A stretch of 31,201 nucleotides of DNA from Allobaculum fili (GCF_020969955.1 NZ_JAHDSX010000028.1:1-31201); one strand, 5' to 3'. Positions 3,692 to 24,809 are shown, counted from the stretch's first letter. Translations and numbers: made by a program. The notes: generated by a model not told the origin, from the letters alone.

Positions 3692-5530
3692 ATGCCTAAC
3701 AAAGCAATGAAAGAAAAGAAACCAACAAAAACCAAACGCAATTCAAAATCCAGGGAACTCGAAGCGGATGCAAAAACAGCGCAGGAAGCGCTCGAAGCCA
3801 TCAAGTCCTTCCGCAATCTCTCGCCGGAAGTTCTTACCTCCGCTCTCAATGACGCCATCGAAGTCGGCTACCGCAAATCCCACGGTCTGAAAACCGCGAG
3901 AATTCGTACCGAACTCGATCCCAAGGGCGGCCTGAAGGCCTTCCGGATCTGGGACGTTGTGGAAACGGTAGAAGATCCGGAAACCCAGCTCGATGTCGAA
4001 GAAGCCAAGGACATTACCCCAAATCCGATCGTGGGCCAGGTTCTTGAAGAAGAAGCCGATATCGAAGACTTCGTTCGCAACGATATCTCGACCGTAAAGA
4101 GCGTTATGCTCCAGAAATTCAAGGATGCTGAAAAACAGGAAATTTTTGAAGAGTACCGTGACCGCGTCAGCGACATGGTCGACGGTCTGATTCATTCCGT
4201 AGAAAATAATTTCGTCATGGTTCGTCTGGGCGCCGATCAGGAAGGCAAGCTTCAGCCCGGTGCAACCGACGCCGTCATGCGCAAATCTGACCAGATTCCT
4301 GGTGAAGAGTACATCGAAGGCAAAATGATCCGCGTGGTCATCACAAAAGTCGACAAGGAATCCAAGGGCGCCATGGTAATGGTCAGCCGTTCCTGCAACG
4401 ACATGATCAAGCGCCTGTTTGAAAAGGAAGTCGCCGAAATTTCTTCCGGAACGATCGAAATCAAGGCGATCGCCCGCGACCCGGGACTCCGCGCCAAGAT
4501 GGCCGTCATTTCCAACAACGAAAACATCGATCCGATCGGTGCCTGCATCGGTCCGGGCGGAAGCCGTGTCCGTGCAGTATCTTCGAATCTGAACGGGGAG
4601 AAAATCGACATTTTCGAATGGTCCGACGATCTGCAGCAGCTCGTAGCCAACGCGCTCTCGCCTGCGCAGGGTGTTCAGATTTTCCCGCATGAAAAAGCCG
4701 CCGATAAACTCGGCAGCGAAAAAGTCCGCCGCTCCACACGCGACCGCAATCCGAACGACGATTCCCGTACGCTGGTTGCTGCCGTACCAGACAATCAGCT
4801 GTCCCTGGCCATCGGCAAAAAAGGACAGAACGCCCGTCTGGCGTACAAGCTGACTGGCTACCGCATCGATATCCGCTCCCAGAGCGAACTCGATGAACTT
4901 GGTATCGACTGGAGAGGGTACGTAGAAGAAATGCATCGCGAGTACGAAGAAAAGAAAGCCCGCGAACGCGCCTACAAGCAGCAGAAGCGTATCGAAGAAC
5001 TGCAGAACTCCAACGAACCGACCGCCAATATCGCCGATGTAGCCGACTACGACTACGATGTCGATTACGACGATCGTCACCTCGACCGCATGGATACGCT
5101 CGCCAGCCGCGAAGCGCAGTACGAAAGCGAAGCCGAACCGGCAAACGAAGCGCCGAAAACCGCAGAGTCCAGTGTCAGCGTTAAGGAAAAGGAACTCGAC
5201 GAAATGGAAGAAGCGGCACGCATCGCCAAGGAAAAACGCAAATCGCTCAGCGAAAAGCGTACGACGTACGTGTCCAAGTTTGAATCTGCTGCCGAAGCGC
5301 CAAAAGCTGAACCCGCAAAACCCGCTAAACCTTCCAAAGGCAAGGATGACGCGAAAAAAGAAAAAGACGAGCGCCGCAAGGAACGCAAGAAACCGGCCTT
5401 CAACGTACTTCATCCGATTTACACCGATGAAGAGCTCGCTGAAATCGAAGACAACGAAATCGAAGAAGAAGAAAATCGTTACAGCGACGATATCGACTAC
5501 GAAGATTACGATTCCTACTACGAAGAATAA
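3692..5530 (+). CDS. nusA: Transcription termination/antitermination factor NusA, with atypical extensions
   Basis: 612-aa ORF. NusA N-terminal, S1 and KH1/KH2 blocks are recognisable (GACIGPGGSRVRAV, QLSLAIGKKGQNARLAYKLTGYRIDIRS). It also carries a Lys-rich N-terminal extension and a K/E/D/Y-rich C-terminal tail of about 200 aa. Confidence 0.9.
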   Translation: MPNKAMKEKKPTKTKRNSKSRELEADAKTAQEALEAIKSFRNLSPEVLTSALNDAIEVGYRKSHGLKTARIRTELDPKGGLKAFRIWDVVETVEDPETQLDVEEAKDITPNPIVGQVLEEEADIEDFVRNDISTVKSVMLQKFKDAEKQEIFEEYRDRVSDMVDGLIHSVENNFVMVRLGADQEGKLQPGATDAVMRKSDQIPGEEYIEGKMIRVVITKVDKESKGAMVMVSRSCNDMIKRLFEKEVAEISSGTIEIKAIARDPGLRAKMAVISNNENIDPIGACIGPGGSRVRAVSSNLNGEKIDIFEWSDDLQQLVANALSPAQGVQIFPHEKAADKLGSEKVRRSTRDRNPNDDSRTLVAAVPDNQLSLAIGKKGQNARLAYKLTGYRIDIRSQSELDELGIDWRGYVEEMHREYEEKKARERAYKQQKRIEELQNSNEPTANIADVADYDYDVDYDDRHLDRMDTLASREAQYESEAEPANEAPKTAESSVSVKEKELDEMEEAARIAKEKRKSLSEKRTTYVSKFESAAEAPKAEPAKPAKPSKGKDDAKKEKDERRKERKKPAFNVLHPIYTDEELAEIEDNEIEEEENRYSDDIDYEDYDSYYEE

Positions 5531-10131: not shown

Positions 10132-13100
10132 ATGAACAGAAAAACTGTATTCAAAAAGGTTTCTGTCCTGGCTCTTGCGCTGTCCATGACGATGACAACC
10201 CCTGCCTACACGCTTGTAATGCCGGTCCTTGCCAGTGAAGAAACCACCCTGAAAACAGAAGTACAGATTACCGATCTGACGGTGAAATCCGGTCTGAAAA
10301 AAACGGATCTGTCCTTTACGCTGCCCGAAAACGCCGACAGCGCACTGACGTACAAAGTGTATCGCGGAACCAAAGTCGATGAACTGAGCGAAATCGGAAC
10401 CGCCAGCGTATCGGAAGGAAAGGGCACCTTTACCGATACCGACAGCGTCACAGACAAACTGTATTTTTATCGGATTCAGGCGGGGGATGCCAGTCAGAGC
10501 GTTGCCTCCGAAGTGCAGTACAGCCAGACGGCTGCTGGCATGGATTCAATCGCCAACGCCCCGTTTTATAAAGATACGTCCAAAATCGAGTTCGATAACA
10601 GCACGTTGGTCGAGCTGACCCCCGAAGAAATCAGCACCTTCCGGGATATGGACAAACCGACGATTTTCGTAAAAGCTGCGCCTAAGGAAAACGTGACCCA
10701 TACCCAGATGTTTTTCATGGCCAAGGATACGGCGGGAGCAGGCGGCAATGCAAACCGGATTTACTTTCAGCTCAGTAAAATTGCTGACAATACGTATCAG
10801 CCGCAGTTTGCCTGGAACGGTGTCGCCTATGCGGGAGATGTCTCACGCTTCAAAGGCGGCGAAACGCATATCTGCGCTCTGGGCTATACGTCCGATAACA
10901 AGATTTCTCTAGTCAGTGACGATCCCGCACAGTCGCGGACCCAGTTTACACGCGAGGCGACCGGCTTTAAGGCAATTAACAATCTGGATGAAGCCACGCT
11001 CGGCGGCTGGAAAGTCAGCGGTACACCTGCGACAACAAATTATTTTGAAGGAACGATCGATTACGTAGCCATTACGGATGAGGCGATCAGCGAGCAGGAA
11101 CTGCGTTCTTTTGTAACCTACAAGCCTGAGACCAGAACTTTCTCCATCGCGCTGGATGCAGGAGAGGGAAGTCTTGAGGCCGAGATGCCGTCTGTAACCA
11201 AAGCGGCAAGTGCCGTCGTTCTGACCATTCCCGAAGCCGCGCCAACCAAAGCGGGCAGCACCTTTACCGGATGGACGGCCAACGGAAAATCGTATCAGCC
11301 TGGAGAGCCTGTTATCCTCGATGCCAATGCGCCTGTGCTGTCTTTACAGGCGGCGTATCAGGATGACGGCACGACCGATCCGGAAGAACCCGATCCCGTT
11401 ACGCTTCCAGTTCTTCAGGCTAAAGGCCGTTATCAGGAAACGGTTCTCTCGATCGAGCGTCCGCAAGACGATACGAAAATTTACAGTATTCTTCGTGCCG
11501 AAGAAGAAGGCGGAACGTATGCGCAGGTCGGAACGATCGATGGATCTTCCTATTCGTTTATTGATACCGGTCTGACCAACGAAAAAGCGTACTTTTATAA
11601 ACTCCAGAATGGAAATACGATCTCGAATGCAGCCGTAACGGCCACGCCGGGCAAAACCGCCTTTATCAAAAATGCGGAAGCGCATAAAACGCTGGCCGAA
11701 AACGAACAGAGCTTTGATGGATCCCGTACTGTTTCGATGAGCGATCAGCTCGATGCCGTTAAAGATCTCGAAGACGGATCGATCATTCTCCGCTTCAAAA
11801 TGGACGAAGCTGGAGCGGAACGCTATGCCTTTACCGCCTCCAGCAGCAGGAACCTCATTAACAGCGGTCTTCCCAACGCCAATAACCTGCTTTATATGGG
11901 GCACAACGACAAGGGACAGGCACGGGTGAACATCAATGCCCTGCGCGGAGCAGCCGGAAGCAATCTGAGTGATGGACAGTGGCATACCGCCGTTCTCGCT
12001 TCCGATACCGCAAGCGGATTTGATGCGTATCTGGCTGTCGATGGCAATGAGATCCTCTCTTTTGCGGATACGACCGGTACCAATGCGAAAGCCTTCCTGA
12101 AGGGAATTTCTGAACTCGATCGTCTGGAAATCGGCGGCTATACCGGCGCCAGCGGTGTGGAATCCGGCTTTAAGGGCGACATCGAGTACGTTTCAATTTC
12201 TTCCCAGAAACTGACGAAGGAACAGGCCAAGGCGCTTTCGATGGAATCTTCCGCCAATCTGCGCAGGGACATGTTCTCCAATTCCACCGAAAACACCTGG
12301 CTCTTTGTCGGCGGAGCGGATACGGAAGGCGACTTTGATCAGATCGGCGATATTCGTCCGTACTCCAATCAGTTTGAAGAATTCGTTCGCTGGGACAGAC
12401 GAAGCGATAACGGCTTTGCGACGATGCGTTACGTCACAAACGGTGCAGCCGCCGGAAATGATCTGAAAAAAACGATCGAAAAACTCGACCGACAGCTGCA
12501 GGTCGTTCATCCGCGCGCCGTTGTGTATCTCTCATCCAAAGAAGATCTGGATGCCTATGCGACCGCTTCGGACAAAGCCGCGTGGATTGCCGGCTATAAA
12601 GCCGACCTGAAGACGCTGCTGGACAAAGCGACCGCTTCGGACGGAGTGAATACGTATCTCGTTTTACAGACACCGTATGTTACCGAGGATGCATCCAATC
12701 CCGATGCACAGAAGGTACTTGCCGATGCGATGAAAGACTTCCGCAGTTCGCTTTCCAGCGAACTGGCCGGTCATGTTCTTATCGTCGATCATTCCAGTCA
12801 GCCGCTCGCCAATTCTGCCGATCAGCCGACCGTGAAAAACGGGCTTCTGACCGGACTTGGCCAGTACCGCCTCGCTAAACAGTTCGCACAGACCGTTTAT
12901 GGATCCAGCAATTTCGCCTGGGGCGAAGACTATATTGACTCGCATGTCCTTTCGGATATTCCTGTCTATAAAGCTCTTGCAACGGCTCCGTTTACAGCCG
13001 ATTTCACCGGGGCTGACGGACTGAACGTGACATTAGGTAGCGCTTCGGTATTTGAAGGCAGAAACTATGTTCTCGAAGCACAGGGCGAAGATCTGAAACT

Positions 13101-18600: not shown

Positions 18601-19846
18601 CCTTCGTTTTACAAATCTTCCGGCAGGAAAATCCGCCGTCGTGAACGTGAAGATTGCGACGACCGATGCGACCGTTACGACGTATACGCCAGCCACAGTG
18701 GAAATTCCATCGAAGACGGAGCCTGCGAATATCGTATTCTCCAAAGCCGAAGGCGGCTATGCACAGGCGGTACTCGAGTTTGAAAATCCGACAAACGCAT
18801 CCGTCACGATTCTTCGCTCGTCTTCCTTAAACGGAACGTATGCGGAAATCGAAACCGTACAGTCCGGATCGTATACAGACCAAGTTGAACCGGATCAGAC
18901 CTGGTTTTACAAACTGCGCTGGAACGATGGAGAAGAACAGACATCCCAGGCCAGAGAAGTGAAAACCGGCATGGAGGCCTATAAAGCCAGTGCCCAAGTC
19001 TACGAAGCCCTTTCTGGCCAGACGTTTGACGGTCAGACACTGATCGATCTTTCCGATCAGGCCGATAGTGTAAAAGCCATGAATGCAGGAAGTCTCTTCT
19101 TCCGCTTTAAGACGGATGCAGCAACAGATTCCATGGCGCTTGTCTATGGAAAAGAAGCGGGTACAACGACTAGCCTGATCCAGACAGGCGGCGGTCAAAT
19201 GAATCGCCATTCGATTTCCCTTCGCCCGCTGCAGGGCAAGCTGTCGCTGCGCCCGGATCTGGCCCACACCAGAGCCGATGGAAACACGGAAGATCTTGGC
19301 GATGGACAGTGGCATAACGTCGTTCTCGTCTGCACTTCCGGTCCGGATCGAACCTTTACCTGGTATATCGACGGTAAGGAAGTTCAGGCCTTTTCCGGAG
19401 CTGGCAATGCCGGCTTCTTCTCCACGCTGGCCGGCCTGAATCAGCTGACGCTTGGCGGTTATTACAACGGGAGCAATATCACGACCGTAATCAACGGCTT
19501 TAAAGGCGAAATGCGCGATGTGATTTTCTCGACGGAATGTCTGAATCAGACCCATTCCCAGAAAATTACAGACGGTCTGTACAGCGAAACGGATCCAGAA
19601 CCGGAACCGACGCTCATCACGGATCTTCTGGATGCGGCACTCCAGAAAGCCGATGCTCTAAACGGCCTCTATATAAATCAGGATCAGAACTTTGACGAAA
19701 AATGCACACAGGCCAGGTCGGTTCTGGAAAATCCGCAAAGACAGAGTGAAATTGATCAGAGTGCCAAAACGCTCAATCAGGCGCTGCTCGCTCTGCGTAA
19801 AGTTCCATCCGTAAATGCGCTCAGCAATTTGAAATCCGTTCAGTAA
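15662..19846 (+). CDS. Giant secreted multidomain protein B (paralog of A): LamG, degenerate SGNH, intact SGNH/GDSL esterase, LamG, FIVAR-like tail
   Basis: 1394-aa ORF with ribosome-binding site AGAAGGAGA and signal peptide MNRKTARTKFSVLALALSM...QVLA/AEA. It is collinear with residues about 425-1741 of protein A. SGNH blocks are GDSITHG (nt 17798-17818), NTAVSGA, LGMNDC and SDGLHPNGIGH. It ends with a PEPEP linker and a FIVAR-like tail. Confidence 0.8.
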   Translation: MNRKTARTKFSVLALALSMSCTALGSSMTQVLAAEAIPSAVHTQTKTNTRPAAQETLPAIEAKGGYAQVQIAIDRAEDDTNTYSILRADSENGSYVSIGETTESIWIDTMVQTETTYFYKLQKGSKISSTPIEASTGKEAYLHQSVLNKALNESESVFDGTRVVDLSDSIGSIKNLEEGSVYIRFKSENATDSALRHLLTYHNCANPEDMSNTNASYSTDKIFYLALDYRNGTHKLRADLTGGAKATNGSGYGDGQWHTLVLTSRADNPTFGVSVDGVSVLSYSQAAFKGLFTRLVNADQLQIGGYKPADTVYEGFKGEISQVAISSEALTTAQANALTSAEQSRFKKDMFSLDEIGNTWMFVGGEEVAANYEHVQGLRSFVYHFEEYARWEKPRQMSTAIEPLKIGHSHFVANAGKTGNTLSDTVSALPDSQNAFHARTIVYTAGIEDIQEYVAAPDKNVWKNSYQTALTSLKNAIPSNGYLVIQTPHACKDAQKNAAAKEIADLIQTHFAADLGAEPNAQNVFVVDQYTHSNTDTFKSTCLNADDQLNGYGHFEIARILENVTGQSTTSDYNAGNLDDCIPVDQPAYHDLANGKEALQASFENASLELTLASSDVLGGSDWILHAENGEVELSTPVQANASVSLPVKDGSWTLRLISEDGTAELPAYSISKGEASLKRQSTLPEETALSDTQKRIRDLLKSDKKLNWIFYGDSITHGCRHTRGYDTIVQLFDKYMHAPDGLNRPDDLILNTAVSGAIAQDTLSDPHKKARIESYVPDVAIVMLGMNDCAASGITPDVFEAQLKENLATIKKQNPDVEIILRACNVTTASGRGNLKQYIAKVRKVAQEENYILADHATTWEAAMARQTNANQGGTGNLNSDGLHPNGIGHKVMFDDLTRAMGIYDTSSPICRLQYKMNQKSTQSDRQPDCQTGIGELSLDLTALVDPGKTAGTAEVTVTAAGFSWTKTYDIASPDDRTTLRFTNLPAGKSAVVNVKIATTDATVTTYTPATVEIPSKTEPANIVFSKAEGGYAQAVLEFENPTNASVTILRSSSLNGTYAEIETVQSGSYTDQVEPDQTWFYKLRWNDGEEQTSQAREVKTGMEAYKASAQVYEALSGQTFDGQTLIDLSDQADSVKAMNAGSLFFRFKTDAATDSMALVYGKEAGTTTSLIQTGGGQMNRHSISLRPLQGKLSLRPDLAHTRADGNTEDLGDGQWHNVVLVCTSGPDRTFTWYIDGKEVQAFSGAGNAGFFSTLAGLNQLTLGGYYNGSNITTVINGFKGEMRDVIFSTECLNQTHSQKITDGLYSETDPEPEPTLITDLLDAALQKADALNGLYINQDQNFDEKCTQARSVLENPQRQSEIDQSAKTLNQALLALRKVPSVNALSNLKSVQ

Positions 19847-19945: not shown

Positions 19946-19999
19946 AAAAAGACCAGTTCTTTCGGATCTCAAAATCGGATTCGATCGAGCTGGTCTTTT
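19946..19999 (+). terminator. Compound hairpin terminator after giant gene B (possibly bidirectional)
   Basis: AAAAAGACCAGTTC...GAGCTGGTCTTTT forms a 9-bp outer stem with one G-T pair. It encloses the inner stem TCGGATC/GATTCGA. An A-run precedes it and a T-run follows. Confidence 0.6.
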
Positions 20000-20288
20000 C
20001 CATATATTGAAGAGGGGAGCCTGCATAAGAGAAGGGGAGTCAAGCCCGCTCGGACGTGCAAAATCACGATGTTTCTGAAGATTGAATCGATATGATCAAA
20101 ATGATGAAAAAGCTTATCCAAAACGGATTAAAAAATTGCGTAACCTGTTGCGTGAGCACTCGAAAATGGCTTATGTACAGCCTGTGTGAAAGCGCATTAC
20201 ATTAAGGACGCGTTAAACTTTGCCAGGAAACCGGGTACATTTCCACAGCATTATTGGAATTCGATGTGTTTCGGTTTATTTTATTGAT

Positions 20289-20819
20289 ATGAAATCACGT
20301 TCCGTTCAGGTTTGCGACTGTGCCTGCTACCTTGCTAAAAACATTCGCAGCGCTGAAGGCGAACTGCCCAGCGCACAGAGAATTCACAACCTCCTGTATC
20401 TTGCTACACGGGAAAGCACCTGCATTTTTGGAGAAGGTCTTGTTCCCTGCACCTTCCGCTGCACCGATGACGGCGTTCTTTGTGAGAACTGCTCTCATAC
20501 CGTAGTCCATTCGGGCCGATGGATTCCTGCTGCACCAAAAATGACCAAAAACGTTCTGGGTATTCTGAACTCGATTCTGGCAACGTATGGATCCTGGAAT
20601 GAAAGCGAACTTCGACTTCACATCCTGCAGGAAAAAAGCTGGAATCACGCCAGAGAAACCGAAGAGGACGGCATTCTCAGTCAGGAAATGATTGCAGAAG
20701 ATGCACAGAAAGTTTCCAGGCTGAATGCCCTCTGGTCGATGAGCCACTGCAGCTACGATCCAGTTATTCTGGATGACGCCGATCGCAGCGGATGCCTCTG
20801 CTTTGGTCTTCAGGCGTAA
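20289..20819 (+). CDS. Panacea / DUF4065 (SocA-like antitoxin-type) domain protein
   Basis: 176 aa counted from ATG 20289. VCDCACYLAKNI...RIHNLLYLATRESTCIFGEGLV..F.C.DDGVLCENC...ILNSILATYGSWNESELRLHILQEKSWNHA follows the DUF4065 pattern (v.dvA.yfl / lKLqKLLYyaq / f.AwkyGPV / vl..YG.~s...L...tH.e.pW). There is no SD before this ATG. The alternative TTG start at 20220 has AAGGA 11 nt upstream. Confidence 0.5.
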   Translation: MKSRSVQVCDCACYLAKNIRSAEGELPSAQRIHNLLYLATRESTCIFGEGLVPCTFRCTDDGVLCENCSHTVVHSGRWIPAAPKMTKNVLGILNSILATYGSWNESELRLHILQEKSWNHARETEEDGILSQEMIAEDAQKVSRLNALWSMSHCSYDPVILDDADRSGCLCFGLQA

Positions 20820-21091: not shown

Positions 21092-22300
21092 TTAGTAAAC
21101 CATTTTAACGATTACAGCAACACCCATGCCGCCGCCGATGCAGAGGGAAGCGAGACCATAAGTGAGGTGACGTTTAGCCATTTCGTAGATCAGGGAAACG
21201 AGGATACGGTTTCCGGAAGCGCCTACTGGGTGACCAAGAGCGATAGCGCCGCCGTTTACGTTGGTAACGGACATGAGAGCTTCGCGATCGATGCCAGTCT
21301 TTTCAACCAGTTCGTGGATTACGCCAAGGGACTGAGAAGCGAAGGCTTCGTTCAGTTCGATCAGTTCCATCTGATCCAGAGTCATGCCTGCATTTTCAAG
21401 AGCGTGCAGGATAGCCGGGGTAGGACCAAGGCCCATTGTCAGAGGATCAACACCGCCTTGACCAAAAGCAACGATTTCAGCGATTGGTTTCAGGTTGTTT
21501 TCAGCTACAGCGGATTCGCTGGCTACGATACACATGGAAGCACCGTCGTTGATTCCGGATGCGTTGCCGGCTGTAACGGTTCCGTCTTTGATGAAGGAAG
21601 GTTTCAGTTTAGCAAGGAGTTCCATGGAAGTTTTTCTTGGATGTTCGTCGGTATCGAAGATAACGGTTTTCTTGCGTTCTTTAACTTCGATTGGAACGAT
21701 TTCATCTTTGAATTTTCCAGCAGCGATAGCAGCAAGTGCTTTTTCCTGGCTGGCGAAAGCGAATTCATCCTGCTGTTCGCGGGTGATGTTGTATTTCTTC
21801 GCAATGTTTTCAGCGGTTACGCCCATGTGAACGTTGTTCATAGCATCTGTCAGCGCATCGTAAATCATGGAGTCAACAACTGTCTGGTTGCCCATCTTAA
21901 CGCCCTGGCGGTTTTTGCCGGAGATCAGATAAGGAGCAGCGGACATGTTTTCAACACCGCCGGCTACGAAGATGCTTCCCCATCCAGCACGAATACGGAT
22001 GGCTGCTTCGATTACAGCTTCAAGACCGGAGCCGCAAACCATGTTGATGGAATGTGCCGGAACTGTGTTAGGAATGCCAGCATCGATAGAAATGTGACGT
22101 GCGATGTTCTGGCCAAGTCCGGCACCAATTACGTTACCGATGATTACTTCGTTAACCTGTTCTGGTTTTACATTTGCCTGTTCAAGAGCTGCTTTCAGAA
22201 CGGTAGCACCCATATCAGCAGGGGTTACATTTTTCAGAGAGCCCATGAATGTTCCGATGGCGGTACGTTTTGCGCCAACGATATAAGCTTTTTCACTCAT
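21092..22300 (-). CDS. thl: Acetyl-CoA C-acetyltransferase (thiolase)
   Basis: 402-aa ORF with thiolase signatures: NMVCGSGLEAV (active-site Cys), NVNGGAIALGHPVGASG and LCIGGGMGVA. Confidence 0.9.
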   Translation of the reverse strand: MSEKAYIVGAKRTAIGTFMGSLKNVTPADMGATVLKAALEQANVKPEQVNEVIIGNVIGAGLGQNIARHISIDAGIPNTVPAHSINMVCGSGLEAVIEAAIRIRAGWGSIFVAGGVENMSAAPYLISGKNRQGVKMGNQTVVDSMIYDALTDAMNNVHMGVTAENIAKKYNITREQQDEFAFASQEKALAAIAAGKFKDEIVPIEVKERKKTVIFDTDEHPRKTSMELLAKLKPSFIKDGTVTAGNASGINDGASMCIVASESAVAENNLKPIAEIVAFGQGGVDPLTMGLGPTPAILHALENAGMTLDQMELIELNEAFASQSLGVIHELVEKTGIDREALMSVTNVNGGAIALGHPVGASGNRILVSLIYEMAKRHLTYGLASLCIGGGMGVAVIVKMVY

Positions 22301-22341
22301 TACGAATGACCTCTTTCTACTCTTACGAGATTTGCGATTTC

Positions 22342-22370
22342 ATACTAGCCCACCCGCGAAGGAATATCAA
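22342..22370 (-). promoter_or_regulatory. Candidate sigma-A promoter of thl
   Basis: On the minus strand: TTGATA (22370-22365), a 17-nt spacer, then TAGTAT (22347-22342), about 40 nt upstream of the thl ATG. Confidence 0.5.
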
Positions 22371-22376
22371 ACCGTT

Positions 22377-22393
22377 TTGTGAAAGAAATCACA
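22377..22393. promoter_or_regulatory. Rex-operator-like palindrome upstream of thl
   Basis: TTGTGAAagaaATCACA compared with the Rex consensus TTGTGAA-N4-TTCACAA has one mismatch in the right half-site. It sits 6 nt upstream of the thl -35. Confidence 0.5.
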
Positions 22394-23497
22394 GTTTCCC
22401 GGATTCCGACGCGATTGTTCGCCTTCCCAGATCGTGAACCGCTTTCAATTTAAAAAGAAAGCCGAATTGCCTTGTTTTTGGCCTTCGAAAGGACCGGATC
22501 GAGCAGGAAAACAAACGTGCGGACTGTTTGAATCTGTCTTTATCTTATCAGAGAGCCCCAGTTTCTAAACCATCATTTTTGACCGAGCGCTCAGACCAGA
22601 GGGGAAAAGCCGCCTGGTGACGCTCTGAACCGAAAGGGATTTCAGCCAGATGTCACAAATTCTCAGAAGATTTTCCGAGCAGGCACTTTAAAGGGAACGA
22701 CTGGATCTGAACTCCCGTATAAGAGTGAGATCACATACAGGATCATGTCCAGGAGAAACAGAAAATTGACCGGCAGATTCGAATGCCCGGCAACGGAAGA
22801 AGAAAAGAGAACTCGCAACTTCCTGACGGGCTGATCCACGAAATGGCTTTCCCATATAGAGGAGCACGCAAGCATAGAGGCACGCAAACCCAAAACAGGG
22901 AAAAGAAAACCGGATCCTGCGGGCGCGGCGAATCCGGAAAACGAGTATGGTCTGTCAGTCATCGTATAGAGAAGAGTCCGATCCAGTCTCTTTTATATAG
23001 ACGATCTTATATTGGTGATCTGTTATAGCCGATCTGTCTGTATATGGACGCTGTATGGGCTGCTTTCTTCACTGCGAAGCAATTCTGAATGAGGACAGCG
23101 AGTGAACGGGAGGCGCAATCCGTAAGAAGTGTTCCCAGAAGAACAGGGGAGTGAGTGAACCGAAGCAAAACGAAATACAGCGTTTTGTCAGGCAGCCTGA
23201 CCGTTTGAGGCGTTCCTTTTCGAAGAAGAAAGCTGTTCGAATCGGATGGAAAATACGAAATTGTGGGATGGAGCGAAACGGAAAACATTGAAAAAAACGG
23301 GTTAAATTCTGAATTAATAAACAAAATGCAAAATGAAAGCGATATCATGGAGGTGGACCGCAGAAATGTGGGTATATTTTGCCCGCTTCGGGCCATTCTG
23401 GTCAAGGGCATGTCTGATTCCCTTTAGGTAGGCCTTTTATGTAAAGGAATTGACAGATTTTAAATACCGGAAGAGCTCCCACACTTTTGTGCTGACG

Positions 23498-23513
23498 TGT
23501 GAAAGTATTCACA
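23498..23513. promoter_or_regulatory. Rex-operator-like palindrome upstream of bcd
   Basis: TGTGAAagtaTTCACA is a perfect core palindrome that matches the Rex operator TTGTGAA-N4-TTCACAA. It lies 8 nt upstream of the -35 of the candidate bcd promoter. Confidence 0.6.
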
Positions 23514-23520
23514 TTTGAAA

Positions 23521-23548
23521 TTGACAGTACTTTGGAAAGGGCTATTAA
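23521..23548 (+). promoter_or_regulatory. Candidate sigma-A promoter of bcd-etfBA
   Basis: TTGACA (23521-23526), a 16-nt spacer, then TATTAA (23543-23548). An overlapping alternative is TTTGGA, 17 nt, TATTAT (23554-23559). The 5' UTR is about 100 nt and contains a hairpin at 23570-23602. Confidence 0.5.
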
Positions 23549-23648
23549 AGGGCTATTATTGTGCTTAGTACAAAGAACGGGTACGTTTTCGTACGTCTTT
23601 GTCCTGGATCCTAAGTTCTATTTGAAGAGAAAGGAGAACTTCATTTTT

Positions 23649-24788
23649 ATGGATTTCAATTTAACAGAACAACAGAAACTGATGCAGAAGTTGTTCCGGG
23701 AAGTTGCACAGGCAGAAGTCAAAGACAATGCTGCTGATGTCGACGAAAAAGAACGCTTTCCAAAAGAAAACGTTGAAATTCTTCGTCAGGCAAAAATGCT
23801 TGGAATTCCTTATCCACGGGAATACGGAGGAGCTGGCGCCGATTATCTGTCCTACATTCTGGCAGTCGAAGAACTCAGCAAAACCTGCGCTACTACAGGC
23901 GTAGTCCTCTCTGCACACACCTCCCTGGGTACCTGGCCGATCGCTCAGTACGGTACGCCGGAACAGAAGGAAAAATACCTTCGTCCGCTGGCTTCCGGTG
24001 AAAAGCTTGGCGCATTCGGTCTGACCGAGCCAAACGCCGGTACCGATGCTGCCGGTCAGCAGACAACCGCCGTTCTGGTCGGAGACGAATACGTTCTCAA
24101 CGGAACAAAGATCTTTATCACCAACGCTGGCGAAGCTGATGTCTATATCATTTTTGCCATGACCGATAAGTCCAAGGGAAACAAGGGTATTTCCGCTTTC
24201 ATCGTTGAAAAGGATACTCCGGGCTTCACCATTGGACAGCACGAAAAGAAACTCGGTATCCGCGGTTCCGCGACTTCCGAGCTGATCTTCAACAACGTTC
24301 GCATTCCTAAGGAAAACCTTCTGGGCGGTGAAGGAAAAGGCTTCAAAGTTGCCATGTCCACACTCGACGGCGGACGTATTGGTATCGCAGCGCAGGCTCT
24401 TGGCATTGCCGAGGGTGCTCTCGAAGAAACCATTAAATACGTTAAGGAAAGGAAGCAGTTCGGACGTCCGATCGCTAAATTCCAGAACACACAGTTTGTC
24501 ATTGCTGACATGCAGACTCGCATTGATGCAGCCAAGATGCTCGTTTACCGCGCAGCTATGGCCAAAGAAGAAGGCAAACCTTATTCCGTACTGGCTGCTG
24601 AAGCCAAGCTCTTTGCTGCAGAAACAGCTATGGAAGTTACCACAAAGTGCATCCAGCTGATGGGCGGCTACGGCTATACCCGCGATCTGCCAGTTGAAAG
24701 AATGTTCCGCGATGCCAAGATTACTGAGATCTACGAAGGAACATCCGAAGTTCAGCGCATGGTTATCTCCGGCGCAGCGCTTCGCTAG
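23649..24788 (+). CDS. bcd: Butyryl-CoA dehydrogenase (short-chain acyl-CoA dehydrogenase)
   Basis: 379 aa counted from ATG 23649, with AAAGGAGAA 9 nt upstream. MDFNLTEQQKLMQ... is a typical Bcd N-terminus, and YEGTSEVQRMVIS is the catalytic-Glu region. It is followed directly by etfB and etfA. Confidence 0.9.
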   Translation: MDFNLTEQQKLMQKLFREVAQAEVKDNAADVDEKERFPKENVEILRQAKMLGIPYPREYGGAGADYLSYILAVEELSKTCATTGVVLSAHTSLGTWPIAQYGTPEQKEKYLRPLASGEKLGAFGLTEPNAGTDAAGQQTTAVLVGDEYVLNGTKIFITNAGEADVYIIFAMTDKSKGNKGISAFIVEKDTPGFTIGQHEKKLGIRGSATSELIFNNVRIPKENLLGGEGKGFKVAMSTLDGGRIGIAAQALGIAEGALEETIKYVKERKQFGRPIAKFQNTQFVIADMQTRIDAAKMLVYRAAMAKEEGKPYSVLAAEAKLFAAETAMEVTTKCIQLMGGYGYTRDLPVERMFRDAKITEIYEGTSEVQRMVISGAALR

Positions 24789-24809
24789 TGGAAAGGAAAA
24801 CGGGATACT

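Follow-up and report, generated by a model that had tools for sequence, protein, structure and literature searches.

Two giant, adjacent, apparently secreted proteins encoded in tandem by genes A and B of Allobaculum fili raise the question of what such a pair contributes to a mucin-degrading member of the Erysipelotrichaceae. The genes lie in a 31,201-nucleotide stretch (NZ_JAHDSX010000028.1:1-31201, from GCF_020969955.1), which was analysed whole and is called the window below. We consider it probable, from comparison of the sequences, that both proteins act as secreted O-acetylesterases on sialate (mucin glycans) and ease the access of the bacterium's own sialidases to sialic acid. This reading follows from the biology of the host bacterium, the intact catalytic residues of one SGNH domain in each protein, the fusion or adjacency of related esterase units to GH33 sialidases, the CBM40 fold of the LamG modules and the precedent of SiaBb1 from Bifidobacterium bifidum.

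Both open reading frames (ORFs), of 1741 and 1394 amino acids, were recovered exactly where an earlier sequence-only reading of the window had placed them. Its proposals that B is collinear with about the C-terminal three quarters of A and that each protein has its own Sec-type signal peptide also held: BLASTP aligned residues 424-1740 of A with residues 56-1390 of B over 1366 columns at 39% identity (E = 0) without rearrangement, and a near-identical Sec-like leader (MNRKT..K.SVLALALSM...VLA, then an acidic stretch) can be read in both. After this putative signal peptide, protein A comprises an Fn3-LamG unit, a Flg_new-like repeat, a second Fn3-LamG unit, a pseudo-SGNH domain, an Ig-like domain, an SGNH domain, a second Ig-like domain, a third Fn3-LamG unit, a PEPEPEP linker and a FIVAR-like tail. 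In protein B the putative signal peptide is followed by an Fn3-LamG unit, and the protein then has the same pseudo-SGNH, Ig-like, SGNH, Ig-like and Fn3-LamG series, a PEPEP linker and a FIVAR-like tail. The module order read earlier from motifs was thus upheld and nearly all of the named modules were confirmed, including the LamG modules (by Pfam LamG families and PF02973) and the Fn3-like and Ig-like modules, which are beta-sandwiches in confident AlphaFold models and have no Pfam match in A or B. For the Flg_new-type repeat and the FIVAR-like tails, all scores are under the Pfam cutoffs. Identity between A and B is highest in the intact SGNH domain (49%) and lowest in the pseudo-SGNH domain (29%).

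Pfam identifies one strong Lipase_GDSL_2 domain (PF13472, about 1e-22) in each protein, in agreement with the intact SGNH/GDSL esterase that had been proposed. Both copies carry the motifs GDSITHG (Ser), NTAVSGA (Gly), LGMND (Asn) and LHPNG (His), the Ser being residue 1071 in A and 715 in B. At the Asp position of block V, B has Asp (SDGLHPNG) and A has Asn (NNNNLHPNG), with the His present in both, so that the domain of A would have a Ser-His pair and not a complete triad. Among 138 aligned core units of related proteins, the Ser and the block III Asn are each found in 134 and the His in 133, while the block V column contains Asp in 67 and Asn in 40. Since Asn is this frequent, its presence in A is normal within the family; the idea that A is inactive through the missing Asp was rejected on these grounds, and a Ser-His pair is probably the working arrangement throughout the family. 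Escherichia coli NanS likewise lacks the block V Asp (PMC9063846). In a PDB profile search the top match of the intact domain of B was Axe2 (E = 3e-17).

The degenerate SGNH domain that had been suspected upstream of the intact one was borne out by profile-profile alignment, although Pfam has no match to it in either protein. Using hhalign, the pseudo-SGNH and intact SGNH families aligned over 196 columns with 99.4% probability (E = 2.4e-21). In this alignment, GDS is replaced by GG plus a variable residue and GxND by GxED; across the 138 aligned units, the column of the nucleophile shows no conserved Ser and the catalytic His column is variable. Because the catalytic Ser and His are gone, the domain is a pseudo-enzyme under the standard SGNH mechanism. 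Nevertheless, the positions W, GG, FEExxRW, N, G, ED, Q, P, DH, N and GH are kept in approximately 75-99% of the units, a pattern indicating that the domain is not freely decaying and that it retains a conserved polar pocket of its own, which in B includes E386, E387, R390, E448, D449 and H554. In the A-type domain the His of DH is kept and Gln stands at the His of GH (residues about 886 and 912; window positions about 12790 and 12865), whereas the B-type domain has VDQ and keeps the GH His (residues 529 and 554; window positions about 17246 and 17321); relative P0005 retains both. These reciprocal His-to-Gln changes suggest that the role of the pseudo-domain has diverged between the A-type and B-type proteins. 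An AlphaFold model of B residues 345-1012 (predicted local distance difference test score, pLDDT, 85; predicted template modelling score, pTM, 0.87) contains two alpha/beta domains with a beta-sandwich after each of them, and the pseudo-SGNH domain shows the flavodoxin-like alternation of strands and helices. The PDB matches of this model are all single SGNH esterases (4Q9A, Axe2 and 7DDY), and no solved tandem SGNH pair was present among the PDB matches of the core in profile and fold searches.

To place this pair of domains among known proteins, the region B130-1310 was searched exhaustively against 1.84 billion representative proteins, yielding 727 matches at E <= 1e-3, 403 at E <= 1e-10 and 128 at E <= 1e-30. 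Architectures were counted in 149 listed representatives, with the two query clusters excluded; since many of these entries are contig fragments, the counts are lower bounds. A pseudo-SGNH followed by an SGNH domain occurs in 129 of the 149, and the degenerate SGNH, Ig-like and intact SGNH domains form a conserved core unit of about 560 amino acids. A LamG domain directly precedes the pseudo-SGNH in 59 of the 129, and 37 of these 59 resemble A and B in having no GH33. The architecture had been regarded as unusual, a view rejected here because the core is common: it is a widespread unit in gut bacteria of which we found no study, and what is specific to Allobaculum is its free-standing, unanchored and duplicated form.

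The same survey connects the core to sialidases. A GH33 sialidase lies in the same polypeptide in 33 of the 129 tandem-bearing representatives and in 32 of the 73 with a length of 1200 amino acids or more, and the core units nearest to those of A and B outside Allobaculum are mostly within GH33 proteins. Pfam analysis of the 21 best relatives identified Lipase_GDSL_2 in 20, PF02973 in 15 and BNR_2 (GH33) in 12; within the 25 commonest families, no further catalytic domain recurred. Named relatives are rare; one is the 'exo-alpha-sialidase' of Anaerobium acetethylicum. In Paenibacillus sp. SAFN-054 (locus L012, 9872-14257) an 862-amino-acid esterase gene encodes a signal peptide, a CBM40 that keeps the canonical E-x-R and R, a pseudo-SGNH (FTGGG), an Ig-like domain and an SGNH domain, and a gene for a LamG/CBM40 and BNR_2 (GH33) protein begins 10 bases past its end. 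Given the GH33 fusions and this pair, the esterase unit and sialidases are linked by fusion or adjacency in unrelated lineages. The Paenibacillus genes are also a compact two-gene counterpart of the fused sialidase-esterases and could serve as a convenient model pair. In two relatives, P0172 and P0174, a single polypeptide carries GH16 and GH33 along with the pseudo-SGNH/SGNH unit; P0174, a 2434-amino-acid 'GDSL-type esterase/lipase family protein' of Enterococcus gallinarum, could, from its domains, be a multi-activity mucin O-glycan enzyme in a known pathobiont.

The carbohydrate-binding-type modules point in the same direction by their fold. Jackhmmer showed that the Fn3-like and LamG domains form a single repeated unit of about 285 amino acids, present in three copies in A and two in B. 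The LamG parts match Laminin_G_2, Laminin_G_3 and PF02973, the last (cutoff 26) with 38.6 bits for the first such module of the shared region in A (A532-701) and 22.6 bits for its counterpart in B. In an AlphaFold model of the first Fn3-LamG unit of B (pLDDT 90.9, pTM 0.89), the top 28 Foldseek PDB matches of the LamG module are all sialidase CBM40s, ahead of neurexin and pentraxin LamG folds, and the best is RgCBM40 (E = 1e-11; template modelling score, TM, 0.80 normalised to the target). Sialic acid binding by CBM40s rests on Glu126, Arg128 and Arg204 (PMC5736709). Hidden Markov model alignment to 6ER2 and a multiple alignment anchored on the invariant GG and FxG motifs showed that in A and B the Glu is replaced by G, A or S, that Arg128 is replaced by D or K except in the second LamG of B, where R is kept, and that the Arg204 position, three residues past the GG motif, is G, P, N, N or V in the five modules. 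With the triad absent, their assignment as canonical CBM40s was rejected; as modelled, the modules have the CBM40 fold without being canonical members. The E-x-R and R residues are retained in the N-terminal module of the GH33 sialidase P0008, as they are in the Paenibacillus homologue. The C-terminal Fn3-LamG units have a conserved RxDLxHTRA motif (about 14830-14860 in A and 19300-19330 in B), which also occurs in the extra Fn3-LamG modules of P0008 and in the LamG domains ahead of the pseudo-SGNH of distant relatives. Solved CBM40s lack this motif, and it may point to an alternative ligand site.

Allobaculum has been linked to mucus erosion. In a one-genome-per-species scan, which detects clade-specific patterns and is not exhaustive for distant relatives, full-length relatives of A and B were found only in Allobaculum, namely in Allobaculum mucilyticum strain 128 and an Allobaculum metagenome-assembled genome, and the A-B locus recurs in several metagenome samples. 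Strain 128 has the same gene order as the window: infB, a peptidase gene, an A-type gene (1797 amino acids), a B-type gene (1402 amino acids) and a 201-amino-acid ORF. Since the orthologues are 61% (A) and 66% (B) identical while the paralogues A and B share 39%, the duplication is older than the divergence of the species and neither copy has been lost, as expected from the suggestion that the tandem duplication is old. Allobaculum mucolyticum is a human mucin degrader; it does not grow on sialic acid, its secreted proteins include sialidases and further O-glycan enzymes, and a 'carbohydrate esterase', Allo_898, is enriched in its secretome (PMC8409761). Allo_898 is absent from the supplements of that paper and could not be linked to A or B.

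Taken together, these features suggest how the two proteins might act. Both would be exported through the Sec pathway, and their CBM40-fold LamG modules, carried on Fn3 and Ig spacers, would dock the enzyme to mucin glycans, probably by a mode other than that of canonical CBM40s. The intact SGNH domain would then hydrolyse O-acetyl esters, most probably on the sialic acids of mucin O-glycans, converting these into a form cleavable by the GH33 sialidases of the organism and exposing the underlying sugars. The pseudo-SGNH, always upstream, most plausibly acts as a built-in partner of the live domain that may shape the substrate cleft or bind glycan; in the sialate O-acetylesterase of Phocaeicola vulgatus (PvSAE), the substrate cleft is formed by homodimerisation of two SGNH protomers (PMC9063846). 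Both paralogues were retained from a time before the species diverged, and they probably accept different acetyl positions or glycan contexts. A more far-reaching proposal, which we advance tentatively and regard as speculative, is that the pseudo-SGNH/Ig/SGNH core defines a distinct, widespread and unstudied class of sialoglycan esterases in which the dead SGNH is an obligatory intramolecular partner, providing half of the cleft or binding and positioning the sialic acid, and so sets the O-acetyl position (4, 7, 8 or 9) or glycan context. On this view A and B, with their reciprocal His-to-Gln changes and their block V Asp/Asn difference, would represent two specificities within a single de-O-acetylation system by which colonic mucin becomes accessible to sialidases.

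Several observations weigh against a sialate substrate. The Glu126/Arg128/Arg204 triad is kept in none of the five LamG modules of A and B. Neither protein has a Pfam match to SASA/DUF303, and by sequence neither belongs to the NanS-type or EstA/PvSAE-type families; NanS (3PT5) and PvSAE (7PZG) are not among the 42 PDB profile matches of the intact SGNH at E <= 0.01, the nearest solved structure is instead an acetyl-xylan esterase (Axe2), and the remaining best matches are generic GDSL proteins. GH33 is not seen in 74% of the tandem-bearing relatives, many of which are contig fragments, and the 31-kb window contains no sialidase or nan gene. A and B could in principle be general or plant-glycan acetylesterases acting on acetyl-xylan, mannan, pectin or other acetylated dietary glycans, with only an incidental link to sialidases. 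This reading has in its favour the similarity to the acetyl-xylan esterases Axe2 (3e-17) and AlAXEase (7DDY), the nearest structures by both sequence and fold, along with a weak match to AxeC2 in an NCBIfam search that otherwise returned no meaningful model and the missing sialic acid triad. However, GH33 is the sole repeated catalytic partner of the core, xylanases and mannanases being absent from the 25 most frequent families of the 21 relatives, the host is a mucin specialist (PMC8409761), and the Paenibacillus homologue both has a canonical CBM40 and is paired with a sialidase gene. We therefore regard a plant-glycan function as unlikely, and xylan as a less likely substrate than sialate even though Axe2 is the nearest solved structure. 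The same GH33 fusions, Paenibacillus neighbour, CBM40 fold and mucin-degrading host support the earlier suggestion that the proteins are O-deacetylases directed at glycans, for which sialate is the best candidate substrate.

The distinct RxDLxHTRA motif, and the divergence of the LamG modules from sialic-acid-binding CBM40s, would also suit esterases for another acetylated host or microbial sugar, such as O-acetylated GalNAc or GlcNAc of mucin cores, capsular or teichoic polysaccharides, or peptidoglycan, for which there are weak fold matches to the peptidoglycan O-acetylesterase Ape1. These matches are far weaker than those to Axe2-like esterases, Pfam scans found no cell-wall-binding domain of the SLH, LysM or SH3 type in A or B, and the association with GH33 would be left unexplained, which makes this alternative quite unlikely. 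That the proteins are mainly adhesins or lectins, whose LamG and Fn3 arrays bind mucus while the SGNH domain is vestigial or traps substrate, is very unlikely. In its favour, five LamG modules stand against two catalytic domains, one SGNH copy in each protein is already dead, and SiaBb1 and SiaBb2 also serve in mucin binding (PMC5626965). Against it, A, B and about 97% of the 138 relatives retain the nucleophile Ser, the His, and the Gly and Asn of the oxyanion hole, and no other domain is as well conserved between A and B as the intact SGNH (49%). In addition, no cell-wall anchor was found in A or B, so they cannot tether cells. The Pfam name Lipase_GDSL and the name given to relatives by PGAP, 'GDSL-type esterase/lipase family protein', might be taken to indicate GDSL lipases or phospholipases acting on host lipids. 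The name is generic, however, and glycans are indicated by the carbohydrate-binding-type modules, by the fusions to GH33 and by the closest structures, which are carbohydrate esterases, so that activity on lipids is extremely improbable.

The features of the two genes are collected in Table 1. The proposal that each gene has its own TATAAT box and terminator was upheld in part. The boxes and hairpins can be seen by eye, and an RBS-like AGGA motif precedes the ATG of both genes, but neither box scored in a consensus promoter scan and the hairpin downstream of B is weak. Because the scanner gave no call, the promoters are visual matches only. A further stem-loop followed by a T-run is read at 9925-9962.

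Table 1. Positions of genes A and B, their modules and nearby expression signals in the window (RBS, ribosome-binding site; aa, amino acids).
Feature	Position	Strand	Description and basis
TATAAT box 5' of gene A	10090..10095	+	Read by eye; RBS-like aggaaa just ahead of ATG 10132
Gene A	10132..15357	+	1741 aa; ORF call and translation
A putative signal peptide	10132..10236	+	MNRKTVFKKVSVLALALSMTMTTPAYTLVMPVLA/SEE; sequence features
A Fn3-LamG unit 0	10267..11124	+	aa 46-331; jackhmmer domain E = 4e-81; confined to A-type proteins
A Listeria/Bacteroides-type repeat (Flg_new)	11146..11325	+	PF09479 E = 3.2e-5, 24.4 bits, under cutoff 27
A Fn3-LamG unit 1	11401..12255	+	aa 424-708; LamG above cutoff for PF02973 (Sialidase N-terminal domain / CBM40)
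A pseudo-SGNH	12256..12951	+	FVGGAD replaces GDS; GQY replaces GH
A intact SGNH	13294..13917	+	PF13472 1.2e-21, aa 1067-1247; column statistics
A Fn3-LamG unit 2	14263..15102	+	aa 1378-1657; RxDLxHTRA motif
A PEPEPEP linker and FIVAR-like helical tail	15103..15354	+	PF07554 E = 3.5e-4, 21.6 bits, under cutoff 29.2
Terminator-like hairpin 3' of gene A	about 15447..15478	+	ccccctcg...cgaagggg then tttttt; read from sequence
TATAAT box 5' of gene B	15585..15590	+	Read by eye; RBS aaggag ahead of ATG 15662
Gene B	15662..19846	+	1394 aa; ORF call and translation
B Fn3-LamG unit 1	15827..16696	+	aa 56-345; 7-strand sandwich and CBM40-like jelly roll in model
B pseudo-SGNH	16694..17401	+	aa 345-580; FVGGEE for GDS, GIED for GxND, VDQ for the family's VDH
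B Ig-like beta-sandwich 1 (between SGNH-fold domains)	17402..17731	+	DSSP strands, core residues 255-328 of model m39d4874a45b3
B intact SGNH	17759..18385	+	PF13472 2.8e-22, aa 711-893; complete Ser/Gly/Asn/His and DxxH (SDGLHPNG)
B Ig-like beta-sandwich 2	18419..18697	+	Model strands, core residues 577-664
B Fn3-LamG unit 2	18734..19588	+	aa 1025-1309; RPDLAHTRAD motif
B PEPEP linker and FIVAR-like tail	19589..19843	+	PF07554 E = 0.024, 15.7 bits, under cutoff 29.2
Possible terminator 3' of gene B	about 19950..19999	+	agaccag...ctggtct then tttt; weak; read from sequence

The genes around A and B have housekeeping or metabolic roles. Upstream of A the window contains NFACT, gmk, rimP, nusA, infB and the gene of a membrane HExxH peptidase, and downstream of B a butyrate-pathway cluster (thl, bcd, etfBA, hbd, crt and a CoA-transferase gene); an Rfam scan of the window gave no match. 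The peptidase gene, directly 5' of A (8899-9849, + strand), encodes a 316-amino-acid protein that begins with several membrane helices and has, at its C-terminal end, an HELVH metallopeptidase domain with weak ATLF and Peptidase_M90 matches; an ORF occupies the matching position in Allobaculum mucilyticum (L001 2415-3542) and the gene is also present in the metagenome copies. Directly 3' of B, a 199-amino-acid Cys-rich ORF with a TTG start (20220-20819, + strand) is a candidate gene without Pfam or NCBIfam matches, and an ORF of similar length is found at the same Allobaculum mucilyticum position (L001 14550-15155). The butyryl-CoA cluster (21092-30315) is complete, with the thiolase gene on the - strand and then bcd, etfB, etfA, hbd, crt and the CoA-transferase gene on the + strand, and its gene content suggests that the host Allobaculum makes butyrate. 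Between thl and bcd (about 22301-23660) lie more than 1.2 kb that contain no convincing ORF and no Rfam match and may have a regulatory function; bcd probably starts downstream of the listed GTG (23499), as its protein is 379 amino acids long in gene calls from metagenomes. NusA (3692-5530; 612 amino acids) has a highly charged, low-complexity C-terminal extension of about 190 residues rich in Glu, Lys, Asp and Tyr (about 4950-5530), which coincides with the strongest AT skew of the window (0.34).

To our knowledge, the bacterial sialate esterases that have been characterised comprise small enzymes of Bacteroidota or E. coli and one bifidobacterial fusion. A and B point to a much larger group of giant Firmicutes and Actinobacteria proteins with a dead-plus-live SGNH pair, often fused to GH33 and including the example in the pathobiont E. 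gallinarum. As free-standing versions of this unit that could be expressed, they would make it possible to probe the role of the pseudo-domain and the regiospecificity of the esterase, and they are possible inhibitor targets or glyco-analytical tools. In the colon, O-acetylation of sialic acid is among the main host defences that protect mucin from bacterial sialidases, and its loss worsens colitis (PMC12403103).

The closest counterpart among known systems, compared at the level of its published architecture, is B. bifidum SiaBb1 (UniProt N0DNS0; Ashida 2018), which as described in PMC10298468, PMC10017367 and PMC5626965 has a ConA-like carbohydrate-binding module (CBM), an SGNH domain and a GH33 domain, and whose demonstrated sialate O-acetylesterase activity removes 9-O-acetyl groups so that sialidases can act. 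Like A and B, it is a giant extracellular enzyme of a degrader of mucin or human milk oligosaccharides in which a ConA-like/LamG CBM is combined with SGNH, and as described its architecture matches that of relatives with LamG, pseudo-SGNH, SGNH and GH33, such as P0035, which has an actinobacterial LAFTG anchor. A and B differ from SiaBb1 in having neither GH33 nor a membrane or cell-wall anchor and in forming a tandem paralogue pair. The earlier remark that no characterised enzyme with this architecture was recognised needs qualification, since SiaBb1 is similar in make-up by description; of the pseudo-SGNH core itself, no study was found. Tannerella forsythia NanS, according to the work cited in PMC8319020 (Albers 2021), is likewise a secreted protein in which two esterase-type modules are combined; it acts together with its cognate sialidase and offers a precedent for modules that differ in O7/O9 regiospecificity. 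Both of its modules are catalytic, however, whereas the first SGNH-fold domain of A and B lacks Ser and His.

PvSAE, Bacteroides fragilis EstA and E. coli NanS are single-domain SGNH 9-O-acetylesterases (PMC9063846, PMC5512079) that share with A and B the SGNH fold and the proposed reaction. NanS resembles protein A in that the catalytic Asp is missing from both, and the cleft that PvSAE builds from two SGNH protomers is an analogy for the pseudo-SGNH and SGNH pair; these are, however, small periplasmic or secreted enzymes without CBM40-like, Fn3 or Ig modules. Axe2 of Geobacillus stearothermophilus, an acetyl-xylo-oligosaccharide esterase (3W7V), is the best solved match (E = 3e-17, Foldseek TM about 0.7) and all four SGNH blocks align, but it is a 219-amino-acid intracellular enzyme with a complete Ser-His-Asp triad, a xylo-oligosaccharide substrate, no accessory domains and about 20% identity. 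The CBM40 of Ruminococcus gnavus NanH (6ER2; PMC5736709) is the closest fold to the LamG modules of A and B, which differ from it in that each is fused to an upstream Fn3-like sandwich and that the sialic acid triad is replaced. On these comparisons, A and B appear to be a variant of known glycan or sialate O-acetylesterases and not a new kind of system. Their uncharacterised feature is the pseudo-SGNH partner, a conserved and widespread domain for which there is neither a Pfam family nor a solved structure, and a further point that sets them apart is the retention of a paralogue pair with reciprocal changes in that domain.

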